Below are positions 4,842 through 53,588 of a stretch of 64,000 nucleotides of DNA, piece after piece. The notes beneath the pieces are model-generated. The model was not told where the DNA came from. It worked only from the letters and a program-made list of their open reading frames with translations, and did no database searches. The DNA is from Myxococcales bacterium (GTDB lineage Bacteria > Myxococcota_A > Polyangia > Polyangiales > JADJMO01), in the NCBI GenBank assembly GCA_016794445.1, contig JAEUKC010000022.1:1133-65132 (forward strand). The letters are read 5' to 3'. Made by a program: the position numbers and the translations under genes. How positions within the stretch are numbered: the stretch's first letter is position 1; each line of letters starts with the position of its first letter.

Positions 4842-6169
4842 AACACCGCTGGACCCGTCGCAGCGTGCTCCGCGGCCTGCTCGGCGGCGGCCTCGTGAGC
4901 ATCGGCCTGCCGTTCCTCGAGTCCATCGCGCGGCCCCGGCGCGCGATGGCGGCGCCCGACCTGTTCCCCAAGCGCTTCGGCCTGTTCTTCTGGGGCAACG
5001 GCGTGCTGCCGGAGCTGTGGCGTCCGAAGAAGACGGGCGACACCTTCGACGCCTGGGATCTCTCCGAGACGCTCGCGCCCCTCGCGCCGCACAAGAAGAA
5101 GGTCTCGGTGGTGAGCGGGCTCAAGGTGCCGATCCCCAACGCGGTGCCGCACCTCTCCGGGCCGATCGGGTTCTTCTCGGGGAGCAAGCCCCTGCCGAGC
5201 GACGCGAGCGCCTTCGCGGCAGCCACCCTCGACCAGCAGATCGCCGAGAAGATCGGTGGGGAGTCGCGGTTCCGCTCGCTCGAGGTCGGCGTGCAGCCCG
5301 GGATCACGGGGCTCTCGTACTCCGGCCCTGGCGCCCTCAACCCCGCGGAGACCTCTCCCGCGGCGCTGTTCCAGCGGGTGTTCGGCCCCGAGTTCGTCCC
5401 ACCGGGCAGCACGCCCAAGGAGAACCCCACCCTCGCGCTGCGCAAGAGCGTCCTCGACGCGGTGACGAGCGAGACCGCGTCGCTGCAGACCGTGCTCGGC
5501 GCGTCGGACCGCGCGCGCCTCGACGAACACCTCACCGGGATCCGGGCGCTCGAGCTGCGGATCAAGAAGCTGCAGGAGACCCCGCCCGCCATCCTCGGGT
5601 GCAAGCCTCCGGCGCCGCCGAAGGCCGACTACCCGAGCGTGGGCGGCCGCCCGCCCATGTCCGAGATCTCGCGCGTGATGGCCGACCTCACGGCGATGGC
5701 CGTGGCGTGCGACCAGACCCGCGTGTTCAGCTTCTGGTTCTCGCAGCCGGTCAACAACACGCTGTTCCCCGGCGCCGCCTCGGGCCACCACCAGCTGACC
5801 CACGACGAGCCGAGCCCTCAGCCGCAGGTCGCCGCGATCCTCCTGCAGATCATGGCCGAGTTCTCCTATCTGATCGGCGCGCTCGACGCGATCCCCGAGG
5901 GGGAGGGCACGGTCCTCGACCACTGCGCGCTGCTCGGCACCACGGACTGCAACCTCGGTCGACAGCACACGCTCGACCAGTATCCGATCGTGATCGCCGG
6001 CTCGGGCAACGGCACGCTCCGGACCGGCGTCCACTACGACGGGCAAGCCAAGAGCCAGAGCACCTCCTACGCGGCCCTCACCCTGGCCCGCGCGATGGGC
6101 CTCGACGATCTCCCGAGCTGGGGCGACGACAAGGTGAACACCGAGATCTCCACCCTGAGGCTCGCCTGA
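4838..6169 (+). CDS. DUF1552-family protein with Tat-type signal (usual partner of DUF1592)
   Basis: GTG start in a GTGA overlap with the upstream stop. N-terminus VKHRWTRRSVLRGLLGGGLVSIGLPF has a twin-arginine. The pairing with DUF1592 is the known conserved two-gene module. Confidence 0.85.
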   Translation: MKHRWTRRSVLRGLLGGGLVSIGLPFLESIARPRRAMAAPDLFPKRFGLFFWGNGVLPELWRPKKTGDTFDAWDLSETLAPLAPHKKKVSVVSGLKVPIPNAVPHLSGPIGFFSGSKPLPSDASAFAAATLDQQIAEKIGGESRFRSLEVGVQPGITGLSYSGPGALNPAETSPAALFQRVFGPEFVPPGSTPKENPTLALRKSVLDAVTSETASLQTVLGASDRARLDEHLTGIRALELRIKKLQETPPAILGCKPPAPPKADYPSVGGRPPMSEISRVMADLTAMAVACDQTRVFSFWFSQPVNNTLFPGAASGHHQLTHDEPSPQPQVAAILLQIMAEFSYLIGALDAIPEGEGTVLDHCALLGTTDCNLGRQHTLDQYPIVIAGSGNGTLRTGVHYDGQAKSQSTSYAALTLARAMGLDDLPSWGDDKVNTEISTLRLA

Positions 6170-43878: not shown

Positions 43879-45594
43879 TCAGCGGGTCATCTGGATGTGC
43901 TCGACGATCGGACCGATCGCGAGCGCCGGGAAGAAGGTCAGCGCGCCGACGATGAGGATCACGCCGACGAGGAGGCCGACGAACAGGGTGTTGTCCACGG
44001 GGAACGAGCCGGCGCCCGCGGGTACGAGCTTCTTCTTGGCCATGTTGCCCGCGATGGCGAGCACGGCGATGATGAGCGGGAAGCGCCCGACGTGCATCGC
44101 GAGGCCGAGGGTGAGCGTGGAGAACACCGGGTGTTGCGTGGAGAAGGCGGTGAGCCCCGCGAACGCGCTGCCGTTGTTCGCCGTCGCGCTGGTGTAGGCG
44201 TAGAGCACCTCGCTGAACCCGTGCGGGTGCGGCCCGCCATCGGGTCCCGTGTTCAGGATCCCCGATCTACCGGCGTCGGTCAGGAGACCCGCCGCGGTGA
44301 AGAGCAGGATCGAGAACGCGGGGATCAGCACGTAGATCGAGGCGAAGCGCACGTCGCGGCTGTCGATCTTCTTGCCGAGGTATTCCGGCGTGCGCCCCAC
44401 CATCAGGCCCGCGAGGAACACCGCCAGGATGACGTAGACGAGGATGCCGTACATGCCGGCGCCGACGCCGCCGAAGACGATCTCGCCGAGCTGCATGTTC
44501 AAGAGCGGCACGAGCCCGCCGAGCGGCGTGTAGCTGTCGTGCATGGCGTTGACCGCCCCACACGAAGCGCCCGTGGTGACCACCGTGAAGAGGGCGCTGT
44601 CGGGGACACCGAACCGCACCTCCTTGCCCTCGAGGTTGGTCGCAACGGCGGCGCCCGCCCGGGCCAGCACCGGGTTGCCCTTGGTCTCGAACCAGGTCGC
44701 GGCGACGATGCCGAGGACTGCGATGAACGTCATCGCCCCGAACACCGCCCAGCCGTGCTTCGGGCTCTTGACCATGCCGAGCGTCACGCACAGCGCCGCC
44801 GGGATCGCCCAGATCGAGACCATCTGCACGAAGTTTGAGAGCGGGGTCGGGTTCTCCCACGGGTGGGCGCTGTTCGCGTTGAAGTAGCCGCCGCCATTGG
44901 TGCCGAGCATCTTGATGGCCTCCTGCGAGGCCACCGGCCCGCGGAGGACGGACTGGGTGGAGCCGTCGAGCGCCGTCCACGACGCCGGGCCCTCCCACGT
45001 CTGGATGACGCCCTGCGAGACCAGGAACAGCGCGTAGAACAGGCAGATCGGCAAGAGCACGTAGAGGTGCACGCGCACGAGATCGACCCAGAAGTTGCCG
45101 AGGGTGTCGGCCTGCGAGCGCGCGAGGCCGCGGATCAGCGCGATGGCCACGCACATCCCGACGCCGGCCGAGAAGAAGTTGTGCGAGGTGAGCCCGACCG
45201 CCTGCGAGGCGTAACTCATGGTCGTCTCGCCGCCGTAGCTCTGCCAGTTGGTGTTCGTGGTGAACGAGACCGAGGTGTTGAACGCGAGCCACGGCGCGAC
45301 GGCGTCGAGCTTGGTCGGATTGAACGGCAGCTCGTGCTGCATCCGGAGGACCGCGTAGGTGACGACCTGGGTGAGCAGCGAGAACGCGAGCATGGCGCCC
45401 GCGTACGCGCGCCACGTGTGCTCCCTGGCTTCCTCGATCCCCGCCGCGCGGTAGATGCCGCGCTCGAGGAACCCGAGGACCTTGCGGGAGGTGTGGTTCT
45501 CCCCGGCGAAGACCCGGGTCATGAACCGGCCGAGCGGCACGGCCACGAGCACGAGGACCGCGAAGAACACCAGGTCGAGGACGAGCACGCGCAT
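43879..45594 (-). CDS. kdpA: K+-transporting ATPase subunit A
   Basis: Internal ATG ([25 protein letters not shown]...). 571 aa polytopic KdpA-like sequence. The start overlaps the kdpF stop (TGATG). Confidence 0.95.
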
Positions 45595-45683
45595 CAGAAG
45601 CGCTCCGGGCGAGCGAGCACGAAGAACAGGTAGGCGGCGAGCAGGACGCTCACGCCGAGGCCTAGGACGAGGTCGAGGGACAT
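45594..45683 (-). CDS. kdpF: K+-transporting ATPase subunit F (29 aa)
   Basis: Not in the ORF track. MSLDLVLGLGVSVLLAAYLFFVLARPERF has the typical single TM and the RPERF ending, directly upstream of kdpA. Confidence 0.8.
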   Translation of the reverse strand: MSLDLVLGLGVSVLLAAYLFFVLARPERF

Positions 45684-45698: not shown

Positions 45699-45782
45699 TC
45701 AGATTGCGTCGCAGAGGCGGGCGAAACCCACCACCGCGACGAAGAGCGCCAGCGTCAGCAAGAGGATCCAGAGATCGGTCAT
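45699..45782 (-). CDS. candidate 27-aa hydrophobic micro-protein upstream of kdpF
   Basis: Not in the ORF track. MTDLWILLLTLALFVAVVGFARLCDAI. GGAG lies 8 nt upstream of the ATG. Sits 15 nt upstream of kdpF. Confidence 0.4.
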   Translation of the reverse strand: MTDLWILLLTLALFVAVVGFARLCDAI

Positions 45783-45799
45783 GGGACGAGCTCCGTGGA

Positions 45800-45814
45800 G
45801 CAGGAACCAGACCA
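45800..45814 (-). promoter_or_regulatory. candidate sigma-54 (-24/-12) promoter for the micro-ORF-kdpFABC unit
   Basis: Minus strand TGGTCTGGTTCCTGC: GG and GC at the exact consensus spacing (TGGCAC-N5-TTGC). The GC lies 18 nt upstream of the micro-ORF ATG. Confidence 0.4.
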
Positions 45815-45895
45815 TCCGGTGACGCTGCGGAGCCTCGGCGCGATCGCGTCGTCACCGCACTCGACGTCGGGCGATTTGCACGACGCCCGCCGCGA

Positions 45896-45913
45896 TCGTG
45901 CGGCCGTGCACGA
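45896..45913. promoter_or_regulatory. candidate enhancer (UAS) palindrome TCGTGCG-GCCG-TGCACGA
   Basis: 18/22 identical to the element at 51397-51418. Lies about 83 nt upstream of the 45814 -24 element. NtrC-like TGCAC half-sites. Confidence 0.45.
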
Positions 45914-45916
45914 ACC

Positions 45917-47743
45917 TCAGGCGGGGAGCCGCAGCGTGAACGTGCTGCCCTCGCCGACCTGGCTCTTGACCTCCAGGTTCCCGCCGTGGCGTTCGGCGAT
46001 CTCCCGCGCGATGGCCAGACCGAGGCCGTGACGCCCGCGGAGCTGGGCCGGCTCCGCACCCGTCCAGTGGCGCTCGAACACGTGGGGCAGGTGCTCCTCG
46101 GCGATGCCTTCGCCGTCGTCGCGCACGCCGAGCACGACGTGGGCAGCGTCTCGCTGCGCGAAGAGCCGCACCGTGCCGCCCGGCTCGGTGTGCCGGATCG
46201 CGTTCGAGACCAGGTTCCCGAGCAGGATGTGGATCTGCTCGACGTCTAGGGAGACGGGCGCGACCTCCTCGGGGTCCACCACGAGGGCGACGCGCTTCTC
46301 GGCGGCGAGCGCCCGGTGCGCGCGTTCGACCTCGGCGAGGAGGGCGCGCGGCTCCACGAGCTCGCGGTGCAGCTCGCCGGCCTCGCGCTCGATGCGCACG
46401 AGATCGAGCAGCTCCTCCACGGTCCGCTGCAGGCGCTCGGTCTCCTCGCAGGCCGTGTTCGCGAGCTCGCGCTGCAGCGCCGTCAGGCCCTCGCTCTCCT
46501 CGAGGAGCATGTGGGTCGCGAGGCGGAGCGAGGTCAGCGGGGTCTTGAGCTCGTGGCTCACCGTGGCGACCACGTCGCTCTTGAGGGCGTCGATGCGGCG
46601 GTAGCGGGTGACGTCCTCCGCCACGACGATCACGCCCCGGCCCGCGGACTCCTCCACGTGCAGCGGGGAGGCCCGCACGAGGAAGAAGCGCTCGGCGCCG
46701 CCGGCTGCGGTCCACTGCATGGCCTCGCTCAAGCTGTCGGGCAAGAGCGGCTTGTCGTCGGCGAGCACGCGGTCCCGCGCCGCGAGGATCCGCTCCGGCG
46801 GCTCGACGCCGAGGCGCCGCTGCTCGTCGCGATCGCCCGGGGTGAGGCCGAACACCGCCTCGGCGGCCTCGTTGGTGAGGAGGATGTCGCCACTGCCACC
46901 GAAGACGATCACGGGGTCGGTCATGGCGGCGACGGTGGCGCGCGACAGATCGCGCGCCGCGAGCAGCTCGCCGAGGCTGCTCTCTCGGTAGAGGCGCAGC
47001 TTGTCCTGCATGCGGTTGAGCGCGTCGGCGAGGCCGCGCAGCTCGCTCAGGTCGGGCAGCGCGAGCTTCGTCTCGAACCGGCCCTCACCGATGGCCCGGG
47101 CTCGATCGGTGAAGGTGGAGATCGGGTCGATGATCACCCGCGGGAAGCGGAAGGTGAGCCACCCGGTCAGGAGGAGGGCGATGGCGGCGGCGAGCACCGA
47201 AAGCGAGCGCGTGCGCTGGGCAAGCCGGCGCGCCTCGGCGTCGGCCCCGACCATGTTCCGCTGGTTCGCGTCTCGGATGGCGGCGATGCTGGCCTTCAGC
47301 TTCTGGAATCGGGGCAGGAGCTCGCCGAAGTAGCCCGCGCTCCGCTGCTCGATCGGCCGCGCGAGCACGCGGTCGGCGGTGATCACATAGTCTTTGTATG
47401 CATCCTCGACGAAGCGAACGAGGTCGCCCTCTCCCGGGAGGGTCACGTTGCGCGCCTCGGCGGCGAGGGCGCCCTCGAACTTGCGGCGGTGGTCGGTGAG
47501 CATCGGGGTGCCGATGTCCACGCGCCCGCTCGCCACGAACAACGCCCCCGAGTCCTGCCGCTCGAGCGCCTCGTTCATCTCCTGGCACGCGACGACCGAG
47601 GCGTAGTTCTCGCGCAGGATGAGCCCGACCGCGCCGCCGAGCCGGTCGAGCGCCAGCGTCGAGAGCACCGAGACCACGAGCACGGTCGCGGCCATCGCGA
47701 GGCCGAGGCGCACGAGGCGACCGCGGAGCGACGCGCGGGTCAT
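45917..47743 (-). CDS. HAMP/PAS sensor histidine kinase
   Basis: Two TM segments flanking a periplasmic-type domain. H-box SHELKTPLTSL. HATPase DDGEGI, GLGLAIAREI. Overlaps the activator gene stop by 4 nt. Confidence 0.9.
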   Translation of the reverse strand: MTRASLRGRLVRLGLAMAATVLVVSVLSTLALDRLGGAVGLILRENYASVVACQEMNEALERQDSGALFVASGRVDIGTPMLTDHRRKFEGALAAEARNVTLPGEGDLVRFVEDAYKDYVITADRVLARPIEQRSAGYFGELLPRFQKLKASIAAIRDANQRNMVGADAEARRLAQRTRSLSVLAAAIALLLTGWLTFRFPRVIIDPISTFTDRARAIGEGRFETKLALPDLSELRGLADALNRMQDKLRLYRESSLGELLAARDLSRATVAAMTDPVIVFGGSGDILLTNEAAEAVFGLTPGDRDEQRRLGVEPPERILAARDRVLADDKPLLPDSLSEAMQWTAAGGAERFFLVRASPLHVEESAGRGVIVVAEDVTRYRRIDALKSDVVATVSHELKTPLTSLRLATHMLLEESEGLTALQRELANTACEETERLQRTVEELLDLVRIEREAGELHRELVEPRALLAEVERAHRALAAEKRVALVVDPEEVAPVSLDVEQIHILLGNLVSNAIRHTEPGGTVRLFAQRDAAHVVLGVRDDGEGIAEEHLPHVFERHWTGAEPAQLRGRHGLGLAIAREIAERHGGNLEVKSQVGEGSTFTLRLPA

Positions 47744-49062
47744 CGAAGGCCGTAGCGCTCGCGCTTGCGATAGAGGGTGGACGGGTCGACGCCGAGCGCG
47801 CGGGCCGCCGCGTCCAGGGTCGGGTGCCGCGCGAGCACGGCCGCGATGTGCCGCGCCTCGGCGGACTCGAGCGACTCGTCTCCGGCGACCGCGCCGCGGG
47901 TCGTCGCCCGCACCTCCTCGGGGAGCAGATCGGGCGAGAGGATCTCTCCGTGGGCGAGCAGCGAAGCGCGCTCGAGGACGTTGCCGAGCTCGCGGATGTT
48001 CCCCGGCCAGTCGTAGGCGACGAGCGCCCCCATCGCCTCGGGCGAGACGGACGTGAGGCGCCCGCCCGAGCGGTGCGGCTGATCGAGCAGCGCCGTGACG
48101 AGGCCGGGGATGTCCTCGCGGCGCTCACGCAGCGACGGGAGGCGCACCGAGACCACGTTGAGCCGGTAGAACAGGTCTTCGCGGAACGTGCCCGCGCCGA
48201 TCGCCGCCCGCAGATCGCGGTGGGTCGCGGCGATCACCCGCGCCTCCGACCGTCGCGGCTCGGTGTCGCCGACGCGCACGTACTCGCGCTCCTCGAGCAA
48301 CCGCAGGAGCTTCCCCTGCAGCTCCTTGCCGAGGTCGCCCACCTCGTCGATGAACAGGGTGCCGTTCTTGGCGGCCTCGACGTAGCCCGCGCGCGCCTGG
48401 TCGGCGCCGGTGAACGCGCCGCGCGCGTGGCCGAACAGCTCGTTCTCGATCAGGTTCGGGCTGATGGTCGCGCAGTTCACCGTGACGAACGGCCGATCCG
48501 CGCGCGGCGAGTGCTGGTGCACGTGCCGCGCGAGCACGCCCTTGCCCGTACCGGTCTCGCCGAGCACCAGGATCGTCGCGTCGGTCGCCGCCGCGCGCTC
48601 CGCGAGCAGGTAGGCCTGCTGCACGGCCGGGCTGTGCGACGGCAACGGCGCGCCCCGCGGCTTGCGCTTCACCTCGCTGAGCTCCTGGCGCAGGCGCGCC
48701 GCGTCGAGCACGCGCGACACCACGTGCTTCACCGCGGCCGGCGTGAACGGCTTCGGCAGGTAGTCGGCCGCGCCCGCGCGCATGGCCTCGACCGCGTTGT
48801 CGATGGTCGCGAACGCAGTCATCACGACCACGGCGGTCCCCGGCGCCTCCTGCGCGAGCGTGCGGGTCACCGTGAGCCCGTCGATCCCCCCGAGTCGCAG
48901 GTCGATGAGCGCGAGATCGGGGGGGTTGCGTCGGGCGGCCGCGAGCCCCGCCTCGCCGCTCGGCGCGAGCGTCACCGTGTACCCCGCCGACTCCAGGCAG
49001 AGGCGCAGGGTCTTGCGGATGGACTCCTCGTCGTCGACGACGAGCACGTGGGCCTTCGTCAT
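47740..49062 (-). CDS. NtrC-family sigma-54-dependent response regulator
   Basis: Canonical receiver (VLVVDDEE...LALIDLRL...LPKPF). GETGTGKGVLARHVH, GAFTGA. C-terminal HTH (AAARALGVDPSTLYRKRERYG). Confidence 0.95.
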   Translation of the reverse strand: MTKAHVLVVDDEESIRKTLRLCLESAGYTVTLAPSGEAGLAAARRNPPDLALIDLRLGGIDGLTVTRTLAQEAPGTAVVVMTAFATIDNAVEAMRAGAADYLPKPFTPAAVKHVVSRVLDAARLRQELSEVKRKPRGAPLPSHSPAVQQAYLLAERAAATDATILVLGETGTGKGVLARHVHQHSPRADRPFVTVNCATISPNLIENELFGHARGAFTGADQARAGYVEAAKNGTLFIDEVGDLGKELQGKLLRLLEEREYVRVGDTEPRRSEARVIAATHRDLRAAIGAGTFREDLFYRLNVVSVRLPSLRERREDIPGLVTALLDQPHRSGGRLTSVSPEAMGALVAYDWPGNIRELGNVLERASLLAHGEILSPDLLPEEVRATTRGAVAGDESLESAEARHIAAVLARHPTLDAAARALGVDPSTLYRKRERYGLR

Positions 49063-49066
49063 GCTC

Positions 49067-50029
49067 TCACCCTACCTCTCTCGAGGGCTTTGTTCCTGGA
49101 TCGTCGTCGTTCGCTCTGTTCCGGTCGGACGCGCGCTGCACCATGGGATGGTCGAACGTTCGCGCGAGCCAGCGATCGAGCTGCGCCCCGCTCGCCCCGG
49201 TGAACAGCACGTACGTGGGGCCGTTCTCTCTGCGCCGACCGACCGCCATCGAGCCCGTCTCGCCGAGCCCGAGCGGGAAGAGCACGGCGTCGAGCTCCGC
49301 GTCGGCTCGTCGCGGCGAGGTCGGGTCGTCGACCACCAGGATTCGTGGCGTCGAGGACAGCACGAGCGGCGCGAGCGGCGCGCCACCGTAGCTGGCCAGG
49401 CGGGCGAGGCCATCCCACGGTCGCGGCCCGTCCGAGACCCCGCTGTCGAGCGCGAGCGCCGCGCGATAGGCGCGGTCGGCGTCCTCGTCCCGACCCGCGA
49501 GCTCCCGGCACAGACCGAGCAACGTCATCGCCTCCGGATCGAGCGGCGCGAGCGCCCGCGCCCGGGACAGGAACGGCTCGGCGTCGGCCGGGCTGCCCGA
49601 GGCGAGCACCCGGCGCGCCGCGGCCATCGCCGCCGCGTAGTCGAGCGCGCCTTCGTTCGAGGCTCGTCGACTGCGCAGCACGCGCTCCAGCGTCTGCCGC
49701 AGCTCCCGAGGCGAGAACGGCTTACCCATCACGTCCGCGATCGAGAGCCGCAAGAGCTCGACGAGGAGGCGGGTCGTGAGCAGCGTGGTCATCACGACGA
49801 TGGGCAGCTCGGGATGGTCGCGTCGCAGCGCGCGCAAGCCCTCCGTGGGCTCGTCGCCGAACGCGCGGAGCTCGACGACGGCGACCTCGACCTCGTGGTC
49901 CCGATCGAGGAGCGCGCGCGCCTCGTCCACGCTCGACGCGGTGACGACGGTGAACCCGGCGGCCACCAGCGCCTGATCGAGCACGTGCTGCACGGTCGCG
50001 TCCGGCTCGACGACGAGGACGCGGCTCAC
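49067..50029 (-). CDS. receiver-like (pseudo-receiver, Asp to Glu) protein with TPR-like C-terminal region
   Basis: VSRVLVVEPDATV...EVAVVELRAFGD...VVMTT...MGKPF: Glu where the phospho-Asp is expected, while Thr and Lys are conserved. GTGA overlap with the upstream stop. Confidence 0.65.
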   Translation of the reverse strand: MSRVLVVEPDATVQHVLDQALVAAGFTVVTASSVDEARALLDRDHEVEVAVVELRAFGDEPTEGLRALRRDHPELPIVVMTTLLTTRLLVELLRLSIADVMGKPFSPRELRQTLERVLRSRRASNEGALDYAAAMAAARRVLASGSPADAEPFLSRARALAPLDPEAMTLLGLCRELAGRDEDADRAYRAALALDSGVSDGPRPWDGLARLASYGGAPLAPLVLSSTPRILVVDDPTSPRRADAELDAVLFPLGLGETGSMAVGRRRENGPTYVLFTGASGAQLDRWLARTFDHPMVQRASDRNRANDDDPGTKPSREVG

Positions 50030-51162
50030 GACGGCTCCTTGTCCCGGTCCGCGGAGGGGTCGCCGACGACCACGACGTCGACCTCCGGCACGGTGCGCAT
50101 GAACTCCGCCAGCACCGAGCCCCGCAGCCGCTCCCGGAGCCTGGACTGGCGCGTCCGGCCGAACACGGCGTGGGTGATCCCCTTCCTGCGCGCGAACTCG
50201 CGCAGCGCCGCGACGACGTCGTCTCCCTCGAGCCGCACGACCTCGGCGCCGAGCTCCTTGGCGAGCCGGATGTTCTCGGTCAGCGAGCGCAGGCTCGCGG
50301 CGTCGATGCGATCGGGGGTCTCGTCGCGGGTGCGCACGTAGACGACGAACCAGCGGCTCGCGAGGCCTCCGGCGAGCCGCGCCCCCTGCCGGAGCAGCCG
50401 CCGCGTCGCGCCGGGCTGCGACGACATGGAGACCATCACGCGCTCGGCGGCGACCGCCCCCGACTCCTCCTCCGGGCTGCGACGCGCACGGCGCTCGACG
50501 GCGTTGGCCACCTCGCGCAGGGCGAGCTGGCGCAGCGCGACCAGGTTCTTCTCGGTGAAGAAGCGACGCAGGGCGTGCTCCACCTTCTCGGGCGGGTAGA
50601 TCTTGCCCTCGCGGAGGCGCTCGGTGAGCTCGCTCGGCGGCAGGTCGACGACGACCACCTCGTCCGCGCGCTGCACGACGCGGTCGGGGATGCGCTCGCG
50701 CACGTCGACCCCGGTCTCGCGCAGCACGAGGTCGTGCAGGCTCTCGAGGTGCTGCACGTTGAGGGTCGCGATGACGCTGATCCCGGCGTCGAGGATCTCC
50801 TCCACGTCCTCCCACCGCTTGTCGTGCCGCGAGCCGGGGACGTTGGTGTGGGCGAGCTCGTCGACGAGCGCGACGGCCGGGCGACGCGCGAGCAGGGCGT
50901 CGAGGTCGAGCTCCTCGAGCGGTACGCCCCGGTACTGCAGCGTCCGGCGCGGCAACACGACGAGCCCCTCGAGCGCGGCGGCGGTCTCCTTGCGCCCGTG
51001 GGTCTCGACGATCCCGCAGACGACGTCGACCCCCTCCTCGGACAGGCGCCGCCCCTCTCGCAGCATCGCGACCGTCTTGCCGACCCCCGCGGCCATGCCG
51101 AGGTAGATCTTGAGAGGCGCCCGGCGACGCGCTCGCAAGAGGGTGAGGAAATCGTCGGCCAC
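50026..51162 (-). CDS. kdpD: stand-alone KdpD N-terminal sensor domain plus Usp domain (no kinase core)
   Basis: KIYLGMAAGVGKT Walker A, LVDELAHTN, ISVIATLNVQHLES, then a Usp-like half. 378 aa with no TM, HisKA or HATPase part. Confidence 0.9.
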   Translation of the reverse strand: MADDFLTLLRARRRAPLKIYLGMAAGVGKTVAMLREGRRLSEEGVDVVCGIVETHGRKETAAALEGLVVLPRRTLQYRGVPLEELDLDALLARRPAVALVDELAHTNVPGSRHDKRWEDVEEILDAGISVIATLNVQHLESLHDLVLRETGVDVRERIPDRVVQRADEVVVVDLPPSELTERLREGKIYPPEKVEHALRRFFTEKNLVALRQLALREVANAVERRARRSPEEESGAVAAERVMVSMSSQPGATRRLLRQGARLAGGLASRWFVVYVRTRDETPDRIDAASLRSLTENIRLAKELGAEVVRLEGDDVVAALREFARRKGITHAVFGRTRQSRLRERLRGSVLAEFMRTVPEVDVVVVGDPSADRDKEPS

Positions 51163-51202
51163 GGTCGGAAGGGTCGCTCTGCCCGCGCGCGGGCGTCGAG
51201 TC

Positions 51203-51295
51203 TCACGAGCCGAGCTGCTCCGGCCGCGCGAGCACGAAGACCCCGTAGATCACGAAGACCATGCCCGAGATGGCGCCGAGGAGGACGTCTGCCAT
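51203..51295 (-). CDS. KdpF-like 30-aa micro-protein upstream of the kdpD N-domain gene
   Basis: Only the tail of track ORF 51203..51760. MADVLLGAISGMVFVIYGVFVLARPEQLGS shares the hydrophobic helix plus the F/VVLARPE(R/Q) ending with the kdpF product at 45594-45683. Confidence 0.55.
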   Translation of the reverse strand: MADVLLGAISGMVFVIYGVFVLARPEQLGS

Positions 51296-51307
51296 GCCGA
51301 CGCTCCT

Positions 51308-51323
51308 TGCAGCGCGTGGGCCA
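51308..51323 (-). promoter_or_regulatory. candidate sigma-54 promoter for the kdpF-like / kdpD-N / regulator operon
   Basis: Minus strand TGGCCCACGCGCTGCA versus consensus TGGCAC-N5-TTGCA, exact spacing. The GC lies 14 nt upstream of the micro-ORF ATG. Confidence 0.55.
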
Positions 51324-51397
51324 GCAGGTGGTCGAGGCTGCTGGAACCCGGCTCCGGACCGGGTTCGGGCGGCGCCGCATGACGGCGTCTCGGCGGG

Positions 51398-51415
51398 TCG
51401 TGCAGCGGTGCACGA
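51398..51415. promoter_or_regulatory. candidate enhancer (UAS) palindrome TCGTGCA-GCGG-TGCACGA
   Basis: Perfect 7-bp inverted repeat between the two divergent -24/-12 elements. Near-identical copy at 45896-45913. Confidence 0.5.
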
Positions 51416-51456
51416 ATCGGCCCCGACGTCGCGTGAAGGTCGGGGGTCCCGAGAAC

Positions 51457-51472
51457 TGGCGCATGGCTTGCA
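51457..51472 (+). promoter_or_regulatory. candidate sigma-54 promoter for the KimA-like gene
   Basis: TGGCGCATGGCTTGCA: 14 of 16 positions match TGGCAC-N5-TTGCA including GG, GC and the spacing. About 60 nt upstream of ATG 51534. Confidence 0.6.
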
Positions 51473-51533
51473 AATTCGCACGACGTCCTCGCAGTCGCGC
51501 ACGAAGTCCACCGCGCAGAACCCGCACTCCTCG

Positions 51534-53588
51534 ATGCCCAAGCGTCTCCGCCACCTCCTGTTCGGCGCCCCCAAGGACGTCCGCGATCCCGAAGCCTTCC
51601 ACAAGATCTCGCTGGTCGCCCTGCTCGCCTGGGTCGGCCTCGGCGCCGATGGTCTCTCGTCGTCGGCGTACGGCCCCGACGAGTCGTTCCGCGCGCTCGG
51701 CGCCCACACCGGCCTCGCAGTGTTCCTCGCGCTCGCCACGGCGCTCACCGTCTTCATCATCAGCTACGGGTACAGCCGGATCATCGAGCAGTTCCCGAGC
51801 GGCGGTGGCGGCTACGTCGTCGCCTCGCGGCTCCTCGGCCCGCGGGTCGGGGTGGCCTCGGGCGCCGCGCTCCTCGTCGACTACGTGCTGACCATCACCG
51901 TCTCGATCGCGAGCGGCGCCGACGCGATCTTCTCGTTCCTGCCGCCGAGCCTGCTCCACTTCAAGCTGCCCGCCGCCGCGGCCGGTCTCGCCTTCCTCAC
52001 CATCCTCAACCTGCGCGGCGCGAAGGAGTCCGTCACCTCGCTCGTGCCGGTGTTCATGGTGTTCCTGGTGACCCACGCGATCATGCTCGGCGTGGTGCTG
52101 TTCGGGCACCTCGGCGACGTCGCGCCGACCGCCCACCGCGTGCAAGAGAGCCTCCACGGCTCCGCCAAGACCCTCGGCACCGTCGGCCTCCTCTCGCTGT
52201 TCATGCGCGCCTACTCGATGGGCGGAGGCACCTACACGGGCATCGAGGCGGTCTCCAACGGCGTCGCCATGATGCGCGAGCCGCGCGTACAGACCGCCAA
52301 GCGCACGATGGTGCTGATGGCCGTGTCGCTGGCCGTCACGGCCGGTGGCATCATGCTCGCGTACCTCTTGATGGCGGCCACGCCCGAGCCGGGCAAGACC
52401 ATGAACGCGGTGCTCCTCGAGCGCGTCGCGAGCCACTGGCAGCTGTTCGGGCTGCCGCTCGGCAAGGTGTTCGTGATCGTGGCGCTCGTGTCCGAGGGCG
52501 CCCTCCTGTTCGTCGCCGCGCAGGCCGGCTTCCTCGACGGCCCGCGCGTCATGGCCAACATGGCGACCGACTCGTGGCTCCCCCACCGCTTCGCCGCCCT
52601 CTCCGACCGCCTCTCCATGCGCAACGGCGTGCTGCTCATGGCGATCTCGTCGGGCGCGCTCCTCGTCTACACGCGGGGCGACGTGTCGAAGCTCGTCGTC
52701 ATGTACTCGATCAACGTGTTCCTCACGTTCTCGCTCTCCAACCTCGCCATGTCCAAGCTGTGGATCTCGCGGCGGAAGACCGAGGCGGGGGCCCTCAAGC
52801 ACCTGCCCGCACACGTGATCGCGCTGGCGCTCTGCGTGACCATCCTCGGCGTCACGGTCTACGAGAAGTTCCGCGAGGGCGGCTGGCTCACGCTCGTCGT
52901 GACGAGCGCGGTCGTGGCCGTGTGCTTCTACATCAAGCGCCACTACGAGGCCGTCCGGATCGCGCTGCGCCGCCTCGACCAGGATCTCCCCTCCCCCGTC
53001 GAGGTCGAGAGCACCACGTCCGAGGGGCGCGAGGCGATCGCGTTCGTGCACGGCGAGACCGAGAACCTCGCCGAGCACCACAGCGAGCTCGATCCCGACC
53101 CGGAGCGACCGGTGGCGGTGCTGTTCGTCGGCGGCTACAGCGGGCTCGGTCGCCACGCGTTGCTCACGCTCCTGCGCATGTTCCCCGACCACTTCGGCGG
53201 CGTGGTGTTCGTCAGCGTCGCGGTCGCGGACTCCGAGTCGTTCAAGGGTCCCGACCAGCTCGAGGCCCTGCAGAACCGCACGCGCGAGCACCTCCTGCGC
53301 TACGAGCGCTACGCGCAGTCGCTCGGCCTGCGCGCAGCGAGCGCGTTTGCGGTCGGCACCGAGGTCGCGGTCGAGGGCGTCCGCGTGGCCGAGGTGCTGC
53401 GGCGTCGCTACCCGAAGCCGCTGTTCGTGGCCGGGCAGATCGTCTTCGAAGAAGAGACCCAGATCTCACGCATCCTGCACAACGAGACGGCGTTCATGGT
53501 GCAGCGCCGCCTGCAGCGCGCCGGGATGCCGATGATCGTGGTGCCCGTTCGCCTCGCGCTCGAGGGAGAGCAGAAGGCCGCGGCGTGA
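51534..53588 (+). CDS. kimA: KimA-type (APC superfamily) K+/H+ symporter homolog with cytoplasmic C-terminal domain
   Basis: Collinear with B. subtilis KimA as I remember it: KRLRHLLFGAP..., LSSSAYGP, FPSGGGGYVVAS, LLVDYVLTITVSIASGADAI, NLRGAKES, C-terminal ILHNETAFMVQRRL. 684 aa. Confidence 0.8.
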   Translation: MPKRLRHLLFGAPKDVRDPEAFHKISLVALLAWVGLGADGLSSSAYGPDESFRALGAHTGLAVFLALATALTVFIISYGYSRIIEQFPSGGGGYVVASRLLGPRVGVASGAALLVDYVLTITVSIASGADAIFSFLPPSLLHFKLPAAAAGLAFLTILNLRGAKESVTSLVPVFMVFLVTHAIMLGVVLFGHLGDVAPTAHRVQESLHGSAKTLGTVGLLSLFMRAYSMGGGTYTGIEAVSNGVAMMREPRVQTAKRTMVLMAVSLAVTAGGIMLAYLLMAATPEPGKTMNAVLLERVASHWQLFGLPLGKVFVIVALVSEGALLFVAAQAGFLDGPRVMANMATDSWLPHRFAALSDRLSMRNGVLLMAISSGALLVYTRGDVSKLVVMYSINVFLTFSLSNLAMSKLWISRRKTEAGALKHLPAHVIALALCVTILGVTVYEKFREGGWLTLVVTSAVVAVCFYIKRHYEAVRIALRRLDQDLPSPVEVESTTSEGREAIAFVHGETENLAEHHSELDPDPERPVAVLFVGGYSGLGRHALLTLLRMFPDHFGGVVFVSVAVADSESFKGPDQLEALQNRTREHLLRYERYAQSLGLRAASAFAVGTEVAVEGVRVAEVLRRRYPKPLFVAGQIVFEEETQISRILHNETAFMVQRRLQRAGMPMIVVPVRLALEGEQKAAA

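Follow-up and report, generated by a model that had tools for sequence, protein, structure and literature searches.

The kdp locus of an uncultured member of the Polyangiales carries a reading frame of only 30 codons whose product resembles KdpF, and this frame stands ahead of the genes for a potassium sensor rather than next to kdpA. The questions raised are whether this micro-ORF is a gene, how its product is related to KdpF, and what such a peptide might do in a sensor operon. The window, namely the whole stretch of 64,000 nucleotides that was analyzed, contains the features collected in Table 1. An earlier note, made from the letters alone, had placed a 30-aa peptide at 51203-51295, 40 nt upstream of a stand-alone KdpD N-domain (KdpD-N) gene, and a bona fide kdpF at 45594-45683. 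The translation was identical to the peptide given there and the coordinates confirmed the 40-nt gap, while the kdpF product passed both PF09604 (22.3 bits, cut-off 21.2) and TIGR02115 (28.1 bits, cut-off 26.85).

Table 1. Features of the kdp regulatory locus, in window coordinates
Feature	Position	Strand	Description
Sigma-54-type motif TGGTCTGGTTCCTGCT	45799..45814	minus	16 nt before the 27-aa ORF preceding kdpF
kdpF, bona fide	45594..45683	minus	29 aa; stop overlaps the kdpA start
27-aa hydrophobic micro-ORF MTDLWILLLTLALFVAVVGFARLCDAI	45699..45782	minus	directly upstream of kdpF
Membrane histidine kinase	45917..47743	minus	HAMP, PAS, HisKA and HATPase domains
NtrC-type sigma-54 activator	47740..49062	minus	REC, AAA+ and HTH_8 domains
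Response-regulator receiver (REC) with TPR-like C-terminal part	49067..50029	minus	GTG start overlaps the kdpD-N stop (GTGA); called in relatives
Stand-alone KdpD-N sensor domain with Usp (kdpD-N)	50026..51162	minus	378 aa; PF02702 (E=1.2e-94), PF00582; no kinase and no TM part
Perfect 14-nt palindrome GCCCGCGCGCGGGC	51181..51194		in the 40-nt spacer between micro-ORF and kdpD-N
KdpF-like micro-ORF	51203..51295	minus	30 codons, peptide MADVLLGAISGMVFVIYGVFVLARPEQLGS
Sigma-54-type motif TGGCCCACGCGCTGCA (GG-N10-GC)	51308..51323	minus	pattern scan; ends 12 nt before the micro-ORF ATG
Inverted repeat TCGTGCA-N4-TGCACGA	51398..51415		between two divergent sigma-54-type promoters; largely conserved in relatives
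Sigma-54-type motif TGGCGCATGGCTTGCA	51457..51472	plus	pattern scan; precedes the divergent kimA-like gene; invariant in relatives, present in L089
APC-family transporter, homologue of KimA (K+ importer)	51534..53588	plus, divergent	PF13520; PDB 6S3K KimA, E=4.5e-57

The micro-ORF is 93 nt long including the stop, with its ATG at 51295-51293 and its TGA at 51205-51203 of the minus strand, on which all genes of the locus except the divergent kimA-like gene are located. The longest ORF in the same frame (51760..51203, 185 aa) is open upstream, and conservation is limited to its last 30 codons. One hydrophobic stretch (residues 4-23), read directly from the sequence, is predicted to form a single helix, so that size and topology agree with those of KdpF (about 25-35 aa, one TM helix). 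The helix contains a GxxxG-type motif at G7-G11, conserved as a small-xxx-small pattern (GAISG or GAIAG) that is typical of helix packing, and it is followed through into a KdpF-like Y...FVLARPE segment.

Based on the gene order, the micro-ORF heads the sensor/regulator operon (kdpD-N, REC, NtrC-type activator and kinase) and not the pump operon. The kdpD-N gene starts with a GTG at 51162. Its best NCBIfam model was NF038185 (KdpD_non_kinase, "KdpD-like non-kinase potassium sensor"), with a score of 366 bits that lies below the cut-off of 550. As in other split KdpD systems, a KdpD-N/Usp protein and a separate kinase are found in the cluster; unlike in those systems, a sigma-54 activator and a REC-TPR protein take the place of KdpE. 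The short KdpD of cyanobacteria is likewise of the stand-alone KdpD-N/Usp type.

When a genome collection was scanned with KdpD-N, a MAG (L001, Myxococcales bacterium EsbW_18-Q3-R4-48_BATAC.438) was found to be 94% identical to the window over 13 kb. An exhaustive HMMER search of 1.84 billion representative proteins returned only two relatives of the micro-protein, and exact-sequence look-ups added 24 contigs with the micro-ORF. On every contig that was long enough, the order was kimA-like gene (divergent), micro-ORF, kdpD-N, REC, activator, kinase, 27-aa ORF, kdpF, kdpA and kdpB, and a normal kdpF was present beside kdpA in every genome with the micro-ORF. The micro-ORF was absent from the next relative (P0020/L089, KdpD-N 87% identical), which has the same kimA-like neighbour and synteny, and from 25 of 25 other Polyangiales loci examined (KdpD-N 65-80% identical). 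In a metagenome scan with back-translated FVLARPEQ, no hydrophobic micro-ORF was seen among the 120 matches listed (of a total of at least 120), which is uninformative. Within the genomes covered, the micro-gene is thus confined to one narrow clade of uncultured Polyangiales with about 94% identical DNA. In one cluster of the protein collection, that of P0004, the L001-type 30-aa peptide was grouped with fragments of NADH-quinone oxidoreductase subunit F, which looks like an artefact.

Several neighbours of the micro-ORF showed features of their own. The REC-TPR regulator of the window was 77% identical to those of L001 and L081 and 59% identical to that of L089; since its two neighbours, KdpD-N and the activator, share 99% identity in the clade, this regulator evolves unusually fast. 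A KimA homologue also adjoins the kdp regulators in L009. Hydrophobic ORFs of 27-31 aa, like the one that precedes kdpF in the window, were located 2-16 nt upstream of kdpF in loci of Polyangiales, Planctomycetota and Verrucomicrobiota (L002, L003, L007, L009, L012, L014, L034, L035, L041, L043, L045, L053, L071-L080, L090 and L091). They share a conserved C-terminal Cys-(Asp/Glu/Gln)-(Lys/Arg)-(Ile/Leu/Val), gave no significant match in Pfam or NCBIfam, and may represent an unannotated family of additional Kdp-associated peptides.

Whether the micro-ORF is translated was judged from its substitution pattern in five DNA haplotypes, which encode four peptide variants and represent four close lineages with about 6-10% DNA divergence. 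Start codon, frame, length and stop were identical in all five, and the sequence contained neither indels nor internal stops; the flanks carry indels. Variable columns made up 18% of the micro-ORF and 12% of the kdpD-N 5' end, as against 34% of the spacer to kdpD-N, 41% of the upstream variable block and 50% of the 12 nt preceding the ATG. Of the 17 variable sites, 11 fell on third codon positions (binomial p=0.008). The pN/pS ratio was 0.10-0.14 in most pairs, while in the other two frames pN was about equal to or larger than pS. The L-A-R-P-E codons contained five synonymous changes and no non-synonymous ones, and both FVLARPEQ and the N-terminal half were invariant at the protein level. The GC content by codon position (0.70/0.33/0.93) was like that of the neighbouring genes, compared with 0.71 in the intergenic region, and gene callers predicted the micro-ORF in independent assemblies. 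These tests rest on 17 variable sites, because only four lineages of about 6-10% divergence were available; for so small a sample, the pattern is good evidence of a peptide that is produced and under selection, and the micro-ORF is probably a real coding gene.

The same data bear on the idea of a relic without function, left by an insertion or duplication that came from kdpF and too young to have decayed, with the synonymous bias as a small-sample effect. The very narrow distribution and the low number of variable sites agree with such a relic, as do the lineage L081, in which a clustered replacement of three residues (YGV to WAA) raises pN/pS to 0.36-0.59 in pairs with L081, and the degraded tandem kdpF copies found in other phyla. 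It is nevertheless very unlikely, given the intact frame amid variable and indel-bearing non-coding DNA and the third-position bias; moreover, pS of the micro-ORF (0.13-0.30) was in the same range as that of kdpD-N, so the frame has had time to decay. The earlier note had looked to conservation in related genomes and to dN/dS. Start, frame and RPE motif proved to be kept throughout the clade of about 94% identity, with the synonymous bias described above; beyond it, in L089 and in the relatives of 65-80% identity, the ORF was missing.

Third-position variability was distributed unevenly along the micro-ORF, since the 5' half had one variable codon in 15 and the 3' half had 10 in 15; the value of the 3' half exceeded that of every 15-codon window of kdpD-N (range 1-9). 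A nucleotide-level constraint or overlapping element in the 5' half was considered and dismissed, as 6% of the kdpD-N windows also had at most one variable third position.

Subsequently, the relationship to KdpF was assessed. The micro-protein and the KdpF of the window could be aligned without gaps and collinearly, with 11 identities in 25 positions (D, L, G, Y and FVLARPE); identity in the collinear alignment of micro-protein and KdpF was 42-44%. When 80 related genome loci were searched by tblastn, the micro-protein detected the KdpF family and KdpF the micro-protein family (E 0.004-0.07), and the kdpF query found nothing else above background. A local HMM was built from 38 KdpF sequences and, with every filter switched off, used to search 21,926 six-frame segments (about 1.04 Mb). 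True KdpF scored 23.6-63.7 bits, the micro-protein variants with Tyr 14.5-16.2 bits, the variant with Trp 5.8 bits, and the best unrelated segment 6.6 bits. Across about 1 Mb in six frames, the micro-ORF family was the only sequence away from kdpA that rose above background with either the KdpF query or the HMM. When the four micro-protein variants were aligned by hhalign with 15 diverse KdpF sequences, a probability of 95.9% over 26 columns was obtained.

The curated models gave a different result. The micro-protein had no match in Pfam or NCBIfam, with the window peptide searched at E up to 1 and the L001 variant (Pfam) and the L081 variant (NCBIfam) at E up to 10, and three micro-protein variants did not reach the cut-offs of PF09604 and TIGR02115. 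A PDB sequence search matched neither the micro-protein nor the KdpF of the window, because E. coli KdpF is too divergent. In the 15 diverse KdpF sequences, the invariant positions are a Tyr-Leu pair, Arg/Lys-Pro-(Glu/Asp) and a C-terminal x-Phe-COOH. The micro-protein keeps the Tyr (Trp in one lineage), Arg, Pro and Glu, while the Leu after the Tyr is replaced by Gly or Ala, and the C-terminus reads EQL(G/R)S instead of E-(R/K/W)-F, with Leu or Ile for the terminal Phe and two extra residues. Two of the four invariant non-Met positions are thereby lost. In addition, about 5.6 kb separate the micro-ORF from kdpA, with which the true kdpF overlaps.

The micro-protein thus shares with KdpF a length of roughly 30 aa, a single hydrophobic helix, the Tyr and FVLARPE, and a place inside a kdp cluster; it differs in preceding kdpD-N, in coexisting with a normal kdpF, in leaving the curated models silent and in its altered C-terminus. 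Judged by these comparisons, it is a relative of KdpF with a resemblance above noise and below threshold, and no regular member of the family; descent of the micro-ORF from KdpF is probable. The term KdpF paralog used in the earlier note is in keeping with the profile-profile, HMM and tblastn likeness, and does not extend to the curated models or to the missing C-terminal E-x-F.

At the DNA level, the 3' end of the micro-ORF matched the 3' end of kdpF at 27 of 32 positions, the best non-self match within the window. A recent DNA copy of kdpF was rejected as its origin, given that the score of 39 was barely above the next matches (35 and 33). Degraded second copies resembling kdpF were observed upstream of the true kdpF in L063 (1065-1196; uncultured bacterium) and in L078 (~884-1180; Candidatus Acidiferrales). 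They have Arg/Lys within the helix, yet end in KPEKF or KPGKF, and they indicate that kdpF duplication recurs.

The comparison with L089 bears on the origin of the micro-ORF. There, the intergenic region measures 186 nt, as against 371 nt in the window, and a sigma-54-type motif (TGGCCCGTCGGCTGCA) is found 14 nt upstream of the kdpD-N GTG. Since this motif directly precedes kdpD-N, the micro-ORF and its spacer (133 nt together) would stand in the window between an older promoter and the gene that originally followed it. Parsimony favours a gain of the micro-ORF in the clade of the window; its deletion in L089 is a possible alternative. The first six codons of the micro-ORF resembled the start of kdpD-N, with 13 of 18 nucleotides identical, the highest value among 372 codon-aligned positions. 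A tandem duplication of promoter and micro-ORF from the spacer and kdpD-N 5' end was considered and rejected, since the local score was 20 against a null mean of 18.9 and the first 18 nt alone stood out.

The promoter motifs of the locus point to a common regulation. The pattern TGGC-N8-TGCW occurred nine times in the window, compared with 3.2 expected, and a scan for sigma-70 promoters found nothing. In the sigma-54-type motifs of the relatives, GG and TGC are fixed and the spacer varies. L001 and L081 have conserved the motif TGGTCTGGTTCCTGCT upstream of kdpF, and similar ones were found in L007, L090 and L091. The half-site of the inverted repeat, TCGTGCA, recurs upstream of the kdp promoter at 45877-45883 and 45907-45913, and these elements fit as candidate binding sites for the encoded NtrC-type activator. 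The micro-ORF operon and kdp share both the motif type and candidate activator sites, and may be controlled by the same system. Taken together, the elements suggest a regulon in which kdp, the kimA-like gene and the operon of the NtrC-type activator itself would be under the control of this activator instead of KdpE. From the sequence we infer the use of the promoter before the micro-ORF, as well as the translation of the peptide, its insertion into the membrane and its partner. The predicted transcription start lies 0-3 nt before the ATG, so that an AAGGAG preceding the micro-ORF in the window, which is not conserved in the relatives, would be outside the mRNA.

A rival explanation gives the micro-ORF mainly a cis-acting role, in which the peptide would be secondary. 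An insertion would have put 133 nt between kdpD-N and a promoter from which its mRNA had formerly been near-leaderless, and translation of the new first ORF would bring ribosomes to a kdpD-N start without a Shine-Dalgarno sequence. This explanation would account for the promoter motif lying 14 nt before the kdpD-N GTG in L089 and 12 nt before the micro-ORF ATG in the window and for the likeness of the first six codons to the kdpD-N start. In the window kdpD-N has no evident Shine-Dalgarno sequence; in the relatives it has a weak AGGA or GGA. Mere translation should, however, tolerate amino-acid changes, yet FVLARPEQ and the N-terminal half are invariant, and the spacer, 39-41 nt in the clade and 40 nt in the window, is long for termination-reinitiation. 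An upstream ORF acting purely in cis is accordingly unlikely, and a cis role may coexist with a function of the peptide as sensor partner or pump isoform.

The earlier note had also singled out the palindrome between the micro-ORF and kdpD-N and had mentioned a leader peptide. The palindrome is exact at 51181-51194. Perfect 14-nt palindromes, though, numbered 16 in the window, against 16.1 +/- 4.6 expected from first-order Markov simulations, and this one is altered to GCCCGACTGCGGGC and GCCCGCGCGCAGGC in two lineages, so no special significance is attached to it. The layout, in which a GC-rich palindrome comes 8 nt after a small ORF and ahead of the first long gene, resembles that of a transcription attenuator with the palindrome as terminator or antiterminator. 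Such an attenuator is highly improbable here, because no T-run or terminator followed the palindrome in a scan for intrinsic terminators, the folding energy of the region was ordinary relative to shuffles (z = -0.53), and the micro-ORF has no run of regulatory codons. Nor did Rfam give a match at the region (a sub-threshold ASdes match was located elsewhere only), and a structured RNA leader or riboswitch was rejected on the same folding and Rfam results.

In the explanation that we prefer, the 93-nt ORF would be a genuine gene that is translated into a micro-protein with one membrane pass and common ancestry with KdpF, and it would have arisen, or survived, solely in one narrow clade of Polyangiales. 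It would be the first cistron of an operon (micro-ORF, kdpD-N/Usp, REC-TPR, NtrC-type activator and HAMP-PAS kinase) transcribed from the sigma-54-type promoter, with a start predicted within a few nucleotides of its ATG. The peptide would insert into the membrane and act on the split KdpD sensor encoded by the same transcript, either by binding the transmembrane region of the kinase or by keeping the soluble KdpD-N at the membrane, in the way that the small membrane peptides MgrB and SafA act on PhoQ. This explanation as a whole, a translated KdpF-derived gene that heads the sensor operon and acts on the split sensor, is offered tentatively, at somewhat less than even confidence, and the role of membrane partner of the split KdpD sensor, taken by itself, is a possibility held more tentatively still.

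Four observations lead to the sensor-partner reading. The peptide is predicted to share a transcript with KdpD-N and the kinase and not with the pump; its helix has the conserved small-xxx-small motif; unrelated two-helix ORFs fill the same slot in at least seven other Polyangiales loci; and mycobacterial KdpF bound KdpD in a two-hybrid assay, although it had no effect on kdp expression (PMC3618439). With MgrB, SafA and mycobacterial KdpF, the micro-protein has in common that a small single-pass peptide is encoded within the regulon of its possible target system; it has no sequence relation to MgrB or SafA, and its gene is itself the first cistron of the sensor operon. Among the papers covered, none described a KdpF-like cistron in a sensor operon or in split KdpD systems. 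Speaking against a sensor partner, L089 and the more distant relatives evidently have working sensors without the micro-ORF, LARPE, as a hallmark of the pump subunit, argues equally for docking on KdpA/KdpB, and overexpression of KdpF in M. bovis BCG left kdp regulation unchanged.

The two-helix ORFs directly upstream of kdpD-N encode 66-112 aa and are located at L010:~5650-5874, L011:~5755-5964, L019:~2366-2701, L020:~5622-5939, L021:~5723-5995, L022:5711-5971 and L023:~5790-5989. They share a loop motif, FGxEPTLA or SxDTLA, and had no Pfam match except a weak one to DUF6343 for one of them. Alignment detected no homology between these ORFs and the micro-ORF, so that the analogy is positional only; the micro-ORF as a truncated protein of this type was rejected, the alignment being without meaningful similarity.

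The main rival to the sensor partner is an alternative isoform of KdpF, made from the regulator operon, that would occupy the KdpF site of KdpA/KdpB and either stabilise the pump as a basal or substitute subunit or compete with KdpF. Strict conservation of LARPE points to it: the Y...(L/V)xRPE segment is kept and protein-invariant despite five synonymous changes, the micro-gene lies within the kdp cluster, and candidate activator sites and promoter type are common to both operons. Every genome with the micro-ORF, however, keeps a normal kdpF beside kdpA, the micro-protein lacks the Leu after the Tyr and the terminal Phe, carries two extra residues and has Trp for Tyr in one lineage, and its gene is, by gene context, not co-transcribed with the pump. 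We consider such an isoform rather unlikely.

KdpF is usually seen as a lipid-like stabiliser of the pump. A broader version of the sensor-partner proposal, by analogy, is that a pump subunit has been co-opted into signalling, with a KdpF-derived helix tethering or tuning the split KdpD and the two-helix proteins serving the same role elsewhere; this is doubtful, and, if true, a small membrane partner would be a general requirement of split KdpD systems. The impact is limited by the confinement of the gene to one uncultured clade. Within it, the locus documents a sigma-54/NtrC-type K+ regulon (Kdp, a KimA-like transporter and a split KdpD) unlike the KdpDE paradigm, and it illustrates how, over a time span of genus level, a 30-codon gene can come to stand between a promoter and the gene that used to follow it. 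At present one mycobacterial two-hybrid result is the sole basis for the idea that KdpF-type helices communicate with the K+ sensor, and a selected KdpF paralogue at the head of a sensor operon would be a natural test of it.
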